From contig JAHIVQ010000047.1 of NCBI GenBank assembly GCA_018816585.1, positions 1 through 29,854 of the forward strand: a stretch of DNA of 29,854 bases, given 5' to 3'. The notes beneath the pieces were generated by a model. It was not told the DNA's origin. It made no database searches and worked only from the letters and a program-made list of their open reading frames with translations. Of this stretch, positions 862 through 22,738 are shown in pieces. Origin of the DNA: Nanobdellota archaeon. Its GTDB lineage: Archaea > Nanobdellota > Nanobdellia > SCGC-AAA011-G17 > JAFCDX01. The first letter of the stretch is position 1; the number at the start of each line of letters is the position of its first letter. Both the position numbers and the translations under genes were made by a program.

Positions 862-1382
862 TTAACTTTCATCTTTTCAACAATGGCTTTATCTGAAAGA
901 ATAGCAGAATTTCCATTTGGATCTTCAATTACAATTTTTAATGGAATATCACCACATTTTACTTTCCATATTTTCTTTAATAAATTCTTTGCAGCTGTTC
1001 TTGCTTCATTATCTTCTGCACTATCTCTTTCACTAATTAAAATATCTTCAAATTTTTTTAATAAACCTTCCATATTTGAAATAAATCCTATAGATGCAGG
1101 TCCTGGTCTTGAATCCATCCTTAATTGTGGTATTTTTACTGTTGCTGTTCCTGATTTTATAACTTTTACATTAAGATCCTTTTCATTTTCTATTGTAAAT
1201 GTGTATCTGCTTGGATCATTTATACCCTCACATTCAACATCAGACATATGATAGTTGCACTTAGAGCAAGTCATAGAAAAAATAAATACTTTACCAAAGT
1301 GAGGAATATCATTTGTGTCTTCTCTAAGCACTAAATTTTTAGTATTACACATTGGGCATTCTTCATTTTTGATTTCTTCCAT
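858..1382 (-). CDS. ZPR1-family zinc finger protein
   Basis: CPMC...IPHFGKVFIFSMTCSKCNYHMSDV, plus DLNVKVIKS and IEDPNGNSAI. Start placed at the second Met (MEEIK, 1382); the track starts at 1403. Confidence 0.9.
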   Translation of the reverse strand: MEEIKNEECPMCNTKNLVLREDTNDIPHFGKVFIFSMTCSKCNYHMSDVECEGINDPSRYTFTIENEKDLNVKVIKSGTATVKIPQLRMDSRPGPASIGFISNMEGLLKKFEDILISERDSAEDNEARTAAKNLLKKIWKVKCGDIPLKIVIEDPNGNSAILSDKAIVEKMKVK

Positions 1383-22591: not shown

Positions 22592-22676
22592 ATTTAGTAC
22601 TAATGCCCGAAGTCAAGGTTTGACAAAAAATCCGAAGATCAGATATCATTCCTAAATTCTTCCATTAGCACTAAAT
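22592..22676 (-). ncRNA. Candidate structured RNA: long hairpin with a BHB motif and cUUCGg tetraloop
   Basis: 14-bp terminal stem (a G-U pair on the minus strand that would be A-C on the plus strand), GAAG/CUUC helix between AAU and GGG bulges, further helices, C(UUCG)G cap. TTTATATA box at 22701-22694. Confidence 0.6.
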
Positions 22677-22738
22677 CTTAGTTAATTTCATCATATATAA
22701 AATTTTCGATTTTTAATTTTTGATAAAAAAGTTTAAAT

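Follow-up and report, generated by a model that had tools for sequence, protein, structure and literature searches.

Bulge-helix-bulge hairpin genes of Woesearchaeota are candidate sources of tiny, double-capped circular RNAs

The archaeal splicing endonuclease EndA has, to our knowledge, few classes of substrates: tRNAs, rRNA precursors, a small number of mRNAs and one permuted signal recognition particle (SRP) RNA. The mRNA introns of cbf5 are among its substrates outside tRNA, and the DPANN archaea, to which we turn here, are reduced, host-dependent organisms. Alpha4-type EndAs of DPANN archaea that carry an L3 insert have been linked to more disrupted tRNA genes, and the authors suggested a broadened specificity (PMC5829648). 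The permuted SRP RNA of Thermoproteus is an EndA substrate that is neither tRNA nor rRNA (PMC4731332), while a systematic search for EndA substrates in Haloferax added only one mRNA leader, the 5′ untranslated region (5′UTR) of HVO_1309 (PMC7714728). In the circular 23S rRNA that arises at a motif known as bulge-helix-bulge (BHB), a GNRA tetraloop caps the ligation junction (PMC12918454). We have analysed a hairpin at positions 22592-22676 on the minus strand of contig JAHIVQ010000047.1 (29,854 nt, the window in what follows) from a Nanobdellota archaeon (assembly GCA_018816585.1). The original prediction had proposed that this hairpin is a free-standing, non-tRNA BHB element able to release a circularisable piece of ∼50 nt. 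We think it probable, from modelling and comparison of relatives, that the hairpin is a free-standing ‘intron-only’ gene whose transcript would be a substrate of EndA and the ligase RtcB and would give a circular dumbbell.

In its BHB register, the hairpin shares with tRNA BHB introns, and with the circles made from such introns (metazoan tRNA intronic circular RNAs, tricRNAs, included), the layout of helix, bulge, helix, bulge and helix. The cuts after the second bulge nucleotide, the action of EndA and RtcB and the release of the excised part as a ring, all of them predicted here, would be further shared features. Unlike tRNA introns, the hairpin and its relatives (below, the hairpin family) have no tRNA around them: the ‘exons’ consist of a covarying stem only, the genes have their own promoter and form tandem arrays, and the conserved design lies in the predicted ring, not in the exon. 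The BHB stems of pre-rRNA, which lead to circular pre-16S and pre-23S RNAs and to mature circular 23S rRNA, resemble the family in the long covarying processing stem that carries the BHB and, if our prediction holds, in that the functional RNA is the excised and circularised inner part; unlike them, the family has a predicted product of 32-73 nt vs kilobases and is located outside the rRNA operon. Small RNAs made as BHB-excised circles are also known among the box C/D small RNAs (sRNAs), both as circular C/D sRNAs and as the C/D sRNA of the tRNA-Trp intron in Euryarchaeota; unlike these RNAs, the hairpin has no properly spaced C and D boxes, no guide complementarity and no tRNA host. Finally, the HVO_1309 5′UTR, the cbf5 introns and the permuted SRP RNA demonstrate that BHB motifs of RNAs other than tRNA and rRNA are also EndA substrates, and such substrates show that the reaction may take place for the sake of circularisation. 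There an mRNA or a known universal RNA carries the BHB within it, whereas in the hairpin family the cassette makes up the entire gene, which is present in many copies.

The 85-nt hairpin RNA (22676-22592, minus strand) has a minimum free energy (MFE) of −28.1 kcal/mol. The plus-strand RNA of 22592-22676 reaches only −17.6 kcal/mol, as five G-U pairs turn into A-C mismatches; the sequence, all the helices listed in the original prediction and its statement that the wobble pairs fit one strand only were recovered. A 110-nt stretch including the promoter has a z-score of −4.32, with none of 200 dinucleotide shuffles as stable. The two arms are inverted repeats (13 of 14 positions identical), and between them lie helices UUAGG/CUUGA, UGAUA/UGUCA and GAUC/GAUU, the last capped by UUCG. 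At −25.0 kcal/mol, the RNA can be drawn exactly as a BHB in which a 4-bp helix separates two 3-nt bulges. The parts are listed below; in the family numbering used throughout, positions 20, 21 and 70 correspond to 22657, 22656 and 22607 of the minus strand.

22694-22701, minus strand: TATA-like box TTTATATA, 18-25 nt upstream of the stem, with an A-rich stretch resembling a B recognition element (BRE) before it
22663-22676, minus strand: outer (processing) stem, 5′ strand, pairing with 22605-22592 over 14 bp, one of them G-U
22672-22663, minus strand: family-conserved core of this 5′ strand, its inner 10 nt
22659-22662, minus strand: central helix, 5′ strand GAAG (G-R-A-G in the family), pairing with CUUC at 22612-22609
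22656-22658, minus strand: 5′ bulge AAU, with an EndA cut predicted from 22657 to 22656
22607-22656, minus strand: predicted excised RNA of 50 nt, U21 to G70
22629-22640, minus strand: apical hairpin GAUC-UUCG-GAUU with a cUUCGg tetraloop
22609-22613, minus strand: A64 and central helix, 3′ strand (A-CUUC)
22606-22608, minus strand: 3′ bulge GGG (GGA in the family), predicted EndA cut between 22607 and 22606
22592-22605, minus strand: outer (processing) stem, 3′ strand

A loose scan for BHB geometry over the whole 878-kb assembly gave 4327 matches, of which 10 had 12 bp or more in the outer helix. BHB geometry is thus common in this AT-rich genome, and the significance of the hairpin rests on its homologues and not on the drawing.

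Homologues were found with covariance models. Within the order, the model made from this single sequence and its drawn structure (R1) matched full-length relatives from other genera and families. A model of 8 sequences (R2) had matches in 14 of the 151 sampled genomes of the order, and a model of 44 sequences (R3) detected members in further orders of this class and in 4 of 150 genomes of a high-quality sample of the phylum. Altogether about 50 relatives, in genomes of the Woesearchaeota type, were collected by covariance model; the named matches are metagenome-assembled genomes (MAGs) of Candidatus Woesearchaeota and Nanoarchaeota. More members came, among the matches listed, from pattern scans of public contigs of genomes and metagenomes; most of these matches are noise, and we used the scans as a source of names and additional members and not as a census. 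A BLASTN search with the hairpin against 60 relatives gave chance or coding matches only (e.g. agatttagtgctaatga inside a surface-protein gene). No family was found for the hairpin in Rfam 15 at E-values up to 10, the best overlapping scores being noise (MIR1444, 20.5 bits with a threshold of 80; snR87, 18.5 with a threshold of 37), nor did the five-element array of a relative match Rfam at E-values up to 1.

The outer stem covaries throughout its core: 10 of 10 pairs vary on both sides and 95.9% of cells are paired in 44 relatives. Beyond 10 bp pairing falls to background level; the 14-bp helix described for this copy is present here, and the stem conserved in the family has about 10 bp. For 22 tested pairs taken together, 95.6% of cells are paired, against 78% after column shuffling and 29-45% after a shift of the partners by 1-3 columns; changes on both sides were seen in 18 of the 22, and G-U pairs are abundant across the family. 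In the apical hairpin the loop is conserved while three of four stem pairs vary on both sides. Conserved letters are G15-R16-A17-G18-A19-A20-U21-U22-U23 on the 5′ side and R64-C65-U66-U67-C68-G69-G70-A71 on the 3′ side, in addition to the cUUCGg hairpin at the apex. The curated set of 44 members, which was selected on the CUUCGG motif and filtered by motif at the bulge positions, has A20 and U21 in all members, A19 in 42 of 44 and C65-G70 identical in all 44; rows present only in the covariance-model alignment include one C at position 21, and the only row of that alignment departing from C65-G70 is of type 2 (GCUC-UG; see below). Position 71 is A in 42 curated members, G in one (the copy in the window) and U in one (L072), and the covariance-model alignment has U also in L069.

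All members are intergenic, and across the family loci no conserved neighbouring gene was found. In 27 of 44 members the 10-bp stem is preceded, at a distance of 19-28 nt, by a TTTAAATA box that has no more than one mismatch, and those without it are mostly downstream copies in tandem arrays. Such arrays include many of the members; adjacent copies are separated by 0-4 nt, and T-runs follow the last copy. In the window, the box noted by the original prediction at about 20-25 nt is TTTATATA at 22701-22694, 18-25 nt from the stem.

These data bear directly on the reading in which the hairpin is a DNA-level feature or a product of chance: a repeat like a miniature inverted-repeat transposable element (MITE), a palindrome to which a protein binds, a terminator acting in both directions or a hairpin that arose at random in AT-rich DNA. 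The 13/14 identity of the arms, the frequency of BHB-like drawings in this genome and the patchy distribution of the family among genomes all speak in its favour. Still, BLAST within the 878-kb assembly returned one match only, the hairpin itself, and not the many near-identical copies of a MITE or other DNA repeat, while the second copy in this genome is diverged and can be recognised by covariance model only. In addition, only one of the strands can form the five G-U pairs and such pairs abound family-wide, the orientation of the promoter is conserved, the covariation spans orders, and none of 14 pattern matches among IMG/VR viral contigs fits the covariance model. We consider this reading largely refuted and scarcely tenable. 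That a new conserved structured RNA family exists is near certain.

The next question is which fold the family maintains. In the BHB register, the pairs G15-C68, R16-U67, A17-U66 and G18-C65 form a 4-bp central helix between bulges A19-A20-U21 (5′) and G69-G70-N71 (3′). The MFE fold of the copy in the window is different; it has a 3×3 loop (GAA/GGG) and, next to it, a GAA/UUC helix in which one C bulges out. The latter fold is the basis of the main rival explanation, by which the small RNA is linear and structured and would not be cut at all: the 3×3 loop GRA/GGA, made of tandem purine-purine pairs, and the UUCG hairpin would make a platform for a protein, and the whole 75-85 nt would be functional. 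This has the advantage that the 3×3-loop fold is the MFE for this copy and for most type-1 relatives, and that conserved purine-rich internal loops typically bind proteins. The natural variants, however, go the other way. The central helix of the BHB register is paired in 174 of 176 cells, two rows being doubly compensated and R16 being G or A opposite U, while in the minimum-energy register (G18-C68, A19-U67, A20-U66) every variant breaks a pair, with eight unpaired cells and none compensated. The comparison of relatives thus indicates that what the variants preserve is the central helix of the BHB, not its competitor.

The inner helix differs from the strict motif. U21 pairs with R64 in 44 of 44 members and U22 with R63 in 42 of 44, while the strict BHB register, which begins with U22-N64, fails at its third pair (13/44); thus the start of the inner helix at U22-A64 given in the original prediction has to be replaced by U21-R64. 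Relative to tRNA BHB introns, type 1 has this extra R64 facing the 5′ bulge. Cleavage in the family register would need a tolerant EndA or the fraying of one A-U or G-U pair. Given the broadened specificity suggested for DPANN EndAs with the L3 insert and the non-canonical tRNA introns of this genome, it is plausible that the slightly relaxed type-1 motif would be tolerated by this EndA.

A second arrangement of bulges was considered at the same positions, namely a kink-turn bound by L7Ae, with the outer stem as C-stem, a G-R-A bulge and sheared G18·A71 and A19·G70 pairs. The letters of most relatives do fit the first three non-Watson-Crick pairs. With G at position 71 in the window (G·G) and U in L072 and L069, the essential G·A pair is lost, and the variability of this position, which contradicts a kink-turn pair, fits a bulge or the first nucleotide of an exon. 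Moreover, a non-canonical stem is missing (U·C, U·U and U·U come next), the inner helix is in the other register, type 2 has no such motif, and the AUGAUGA further upstream, which overlaps the TATA box, lacks a D box at the right spacing. A kink-turn RNA is therefore very improbable.

Additional information on the fold comes from a sister subtype, designated type 2, in which the order of elements is outer stem, GAGC-AAY, hairpin, GCUC-UGA and outer stem. Type-2 copies often lie directly 3′ of a type-1 copy, 0-4 nt apart. The loci are as follows.

L071:1250-1600, minus strand: type-2 locus
L257:11238-11453, plus strand: type-2 locus
L056:1582-1650, plus strand: type-2 locus
L068:1573-1625, plus strand: type-2 locus

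For the two L071 copies and for L257, the RNAfold MFE is the canonical hBHBh′ 3-4-3 structure, with a 4-bp helix between 3-nt bulges; in L056 just the 5′ half of the BHB motif is retained, and L068 has no such fold. Two of the four central pairs of type 1 have both letters exchanged in type 2, A-U becoming G-C and G-C becoming C-G, and are thus doubly compensated between the types. The fold with the 3×3 loop is impossible for type 2, in which the clearest copies are canonical BHBs. One genome has five elements in a row with alternating types under one promoter.

The cutting rule was taken from the neighbouring tRNA-Cys gene, whose intron is expected to be cut after the second nucleotide of each bulge. 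Applied to the hairpin, the rule places cuts after A20 (22657) and G70 (22607) and predicts a 50-nt RNA, U21 to G70; the piece at 22656-22607 given in the original prediction follows from the same geometry. Predicted ring sizes across the family range from 32 to 73 nt. When the predicted rings are folded as circles, 42 of 44 members, the copy in the window included, give a fully paired, double-capped dumbbell. At the predicted G70-U21 junction, C65 and G70 would close UUCG as a second cUUCGg loop, stacked on the pair R64-U21; in type 2 the analogous closure would be Y21-G65 plus C66(UCU)G70. A dumbbell product would account for the invariant CUUCGG and for its copying of the apical loop, for GRAG as the complement of CUUC in the precursor, and also for the U21-R64 register. 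The predicted junction is thus capped by a UUCG tetraloop where circular 23S rRNA has GNRA; unlike circular rRNA, the ring would have tetraloops at both ends and would be as a whole one rod.

The tandem arrays indicate which part of the RNA is under constraint. In array L277 the ring sequences are identical at 36 of 36 positions while outer strands agree at only 3-4 of 10; in L117 the corresponding numbers are 40 of 40 and 6-8 of 10. In both arrays 9 of 10 outer-stem positions remain paired despite the differing letters. The ‘exon’ loop is GRAGAAA in type 1 and GAGCAAA in type 2, with BHB geometry kept. Identical rings, free outer stems and a changing loop fit an inner RNA that is released from a surrounding processing stem, in the manner of rRNA operons, and fit a functional linear hairpin poorly. 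The uncut linear RNA leaves unexplained the identical inner parts within unrelated outer stems in tandem, as well as the 0-4 nt spacing of copies and the CUUCGG that copies the apical loop; together with the broken GAA/UUC helix, these observations make it doubtful that the RNA acts uncut.

The same arrays can be used to ask which of two products would matter if EndA does cut. An alternative is that the ligated ‘exon’ hairpin, a 10-14-bp stem with the 7-nt loop G-R-A-G-A-A-R, is functional and that the ring is waste or a regulator of maturation. The loop sequence is indeed conserved within type 1, and such a hairpin resembles an anticodon arm or a minihelix. Yet the loop changes between types while the BHB geometry stays, stem sequence and length vary freely, the exon hairpins of an array would stay concatenated, and it is the ring sequence that remains identical between copies; the need to pair with CUUC is enough to account for the conserved loop. 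We regard a functional exon hairpin as quite improbable, and the ring as the likely functional product on the basis of these comparisons.

Under the circular-dumbbell reading, the events would be as follows. Transcription would begin near the stem base from the gene's own BRE/TATA promoter, as suggested by a TATA box conserved at a fixed distance. The transcript would then fold into a processing stem of ∼10-14 bp that carries the BHB, with GRAG and CUUC flanked by AAU and GGA/G; the helices of this fold are those shown by covariation. EndA would cut after A20 and G70, as suggested by a geometry identical to that of the adjacent tRNA-Cys intron. RtcB would seal both products, the 50-nt ring and a short hairpin with a 7-nt purine loop, the latter probably a by-product. 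Finally, the CUUC strand, freed from GRAG, would allow the ring to become a continuous rod with cUUCGg at both ends, as predicted by folding. Both enzymes are encoded in this genome: an EndA gene (G000:C38, 206-aa open reading frame, PF01974 match of 104 bits) and an RtcB gene (G000:C44, PF01139 match of 97 bits, at a contig end).

Several points weigh against this scheme. In the copy in the window the BHB lies 3.1 kcal/mol above the MFE, and in type 1 it is generally not the MFE structure; thus the fold proposed by the original prediction is drawable and has covarying helices but is not the most stable one for this copy. The U21-R64 register leaves a 2-nt 5′ bulge or a 3×1 loop and not a clean 3-nt bulge. 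Since CUUC, the 3′ strand, is invariant in type 1, support for the central helix comes from a handful of variants plus five to six type-2 elements, and the type-2 variants are few and related and do not represent independent events. The alignment used for these counts (A7) was fitted to a model that already included the central helix. Three C18 variants make a C-C mismatch in the strict register; all three have G64, a point in favour of the BHB register.

With these points taken into account, the idea of a free-standing non-tRNA BHB hairpin with a circularisable piece of ∼50 nt still appears supported by comparison, through a family with promoters and a type 2, by the second cUUCGg cap predicted at the junction, and by the presence of EndA and RtcB genes. 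We propose, with no more than middling confidence, that Woesearchaeota have a dedicated class of ‘intron-only’ genes, with two interchangeable BHB subtypes often in tandem under one promoter, whose sole purpose would be to make tiny double-capped circular RNAs (32-73 nt). The hairpin differs from the known BHB substrates in that the BHB is the whole gene, that the genes form a two-subtype, often tandem family, and that the predicted product is a double-capped rod.

As to the role of the ring, a search for antisense targets of both 50-nt rings in this genome gave only 12-13-mers at chance level. The ring is conserved in shape and caps and not in sequence, which points, if weakly, to a very stable double-stranded ligand or protein titrator and not to an antisense guide. 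The roles of EndA decoy or intron reservoir are speculation.

If the scheme is true, archaea make circular RNAs on purpose and not merely as by-products, DPANN archaea contain an unstudied and very stable RNA species, and a new kind of stable non-coding RNA goes together with a new use of EndA and RtcB. It would also reveal a simple natural design rule for BHB circles, by which the closing tetraloop comes from re-folding of the 3′ strand of the central helix, and the BHB cassette could serve as a ready minimal scaffold for the production of circular RNA in engineered systems. Even if processing were disproved, there would be a new conserved structured RNA family of more than 50 members that is absent from Rfam.

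Other identities of the hairpin were considered and rejected. ARAGORN and the Rfam tRNA model find nothing at 22592-22701, only the tRNA-Arg and tRNA-Cys genes downstream. As for a box C/D sRNA, the AUGAUGA lies upstream of the conserved RNA, its spacing to an internal CUGA is wrong and its letters are not conserved. An H/ACA RNA would require an ACA, which is lacking, and the pocket is too small; most loci have no downstream same-strand open reading frame for a riboswitch; and the defining motifs of an Sm site or a small self-cleaving ribozyme are missing. The AUGAUGA, at 22694-22688 on the minus strand, is a perfect C-box-like sequence whose letters overlap the TATA box at its 3′ end; relatives do not share it, and it is probably there by chance.

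A salt-marsh strain provides a further comparison. Searches of sequencing runs for this locus and for the array of a relative gave no RNA run among the matches listed. Contigs from four DNA runs, aligned to the region, showed no junctions and a single, partial strain variant, which spans the 3′ half of the hairpin and has one change there, at 22593, beyond the conserved 10-bp core; the flanking intergenic DNA of the same strain has substitutions and a 7-nt deletion. This pattern gives weak support for constraint on the hairpin.

The source assembly (878 kb, 88% complete, ∼28% GC) comes from groundwater metagenomes. The second, diverged copy of the family in this genome lies outside the window, at G000:C88:20952-21035 on the plus strand, and scores 49 bits with R3. 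It has its own TTTAAATA box, a predicted ring of 50 nt and the apex GAC-UUCUA-GUC in place of the UUCG loop. Within the order, the RNA was found in 12 of 60 genomes with completeness below 90% and in only 2 of 91 above; either the carrier lineages score low on marker sets, or the RNA has some other tie to incomplete bins.

One family member (L090, 56 bits) was found at 1215-1311, minus strand, of CAZHVK010000011.1, a contig with a GC content of 30% in a MAG labelled Methanosarcinales; this is probably a mis-binned DPANN contig and not evidence of the family in methanogens. The noise in the pattern scans is largely due to Porphyromonas (uncultured Porphyromonas sp. UMGS107 / MGYG-HGUT-03837), in which a highly repeated element of ∼130 bp matched the search pattern by accident. 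The element, which contains many CCACGTGG palindromes and has no relation to the archaeal RNA, was located at L078:7180-7310, L086, L088, L095 and about 30 more loci among the matches listed.

Downstream of the hairpin are two tRNA genes.

22534-22458, minus strand: tRNA-Arg(UCU) with its own promoter, on the same strand as the hairpin (ARAGORN, Rfam)
22455-22373, minus strand: tRNA-Cys(GCA) with a canonical 12-nt intron at 37/38, 150 nt downstream of the hairpin

Where relatives retain the tRNA-Arg/tRNA-Cys pair, no hairpin precedes it, the tRNA promoter following directly after the upstream gene, and the link between hairpin and tRNAs is thus local and not conserved. The similarity that the original prediction saw between the bulge strands of the hairpin and those of tRNA-Pro intron 2 is loose and looks coincidental, the family consensus being GGA and not GGG. 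In the BHB of the tRNA-Cys intron a 5-nt loop replaces the inner helix, the central helix is CUGC/GCAG and the bulges are AA|U and AA|C; ARAGORN gives the anticodon of this tRNA as unknown. Non-canonical tRNA introns are also present in this genome.

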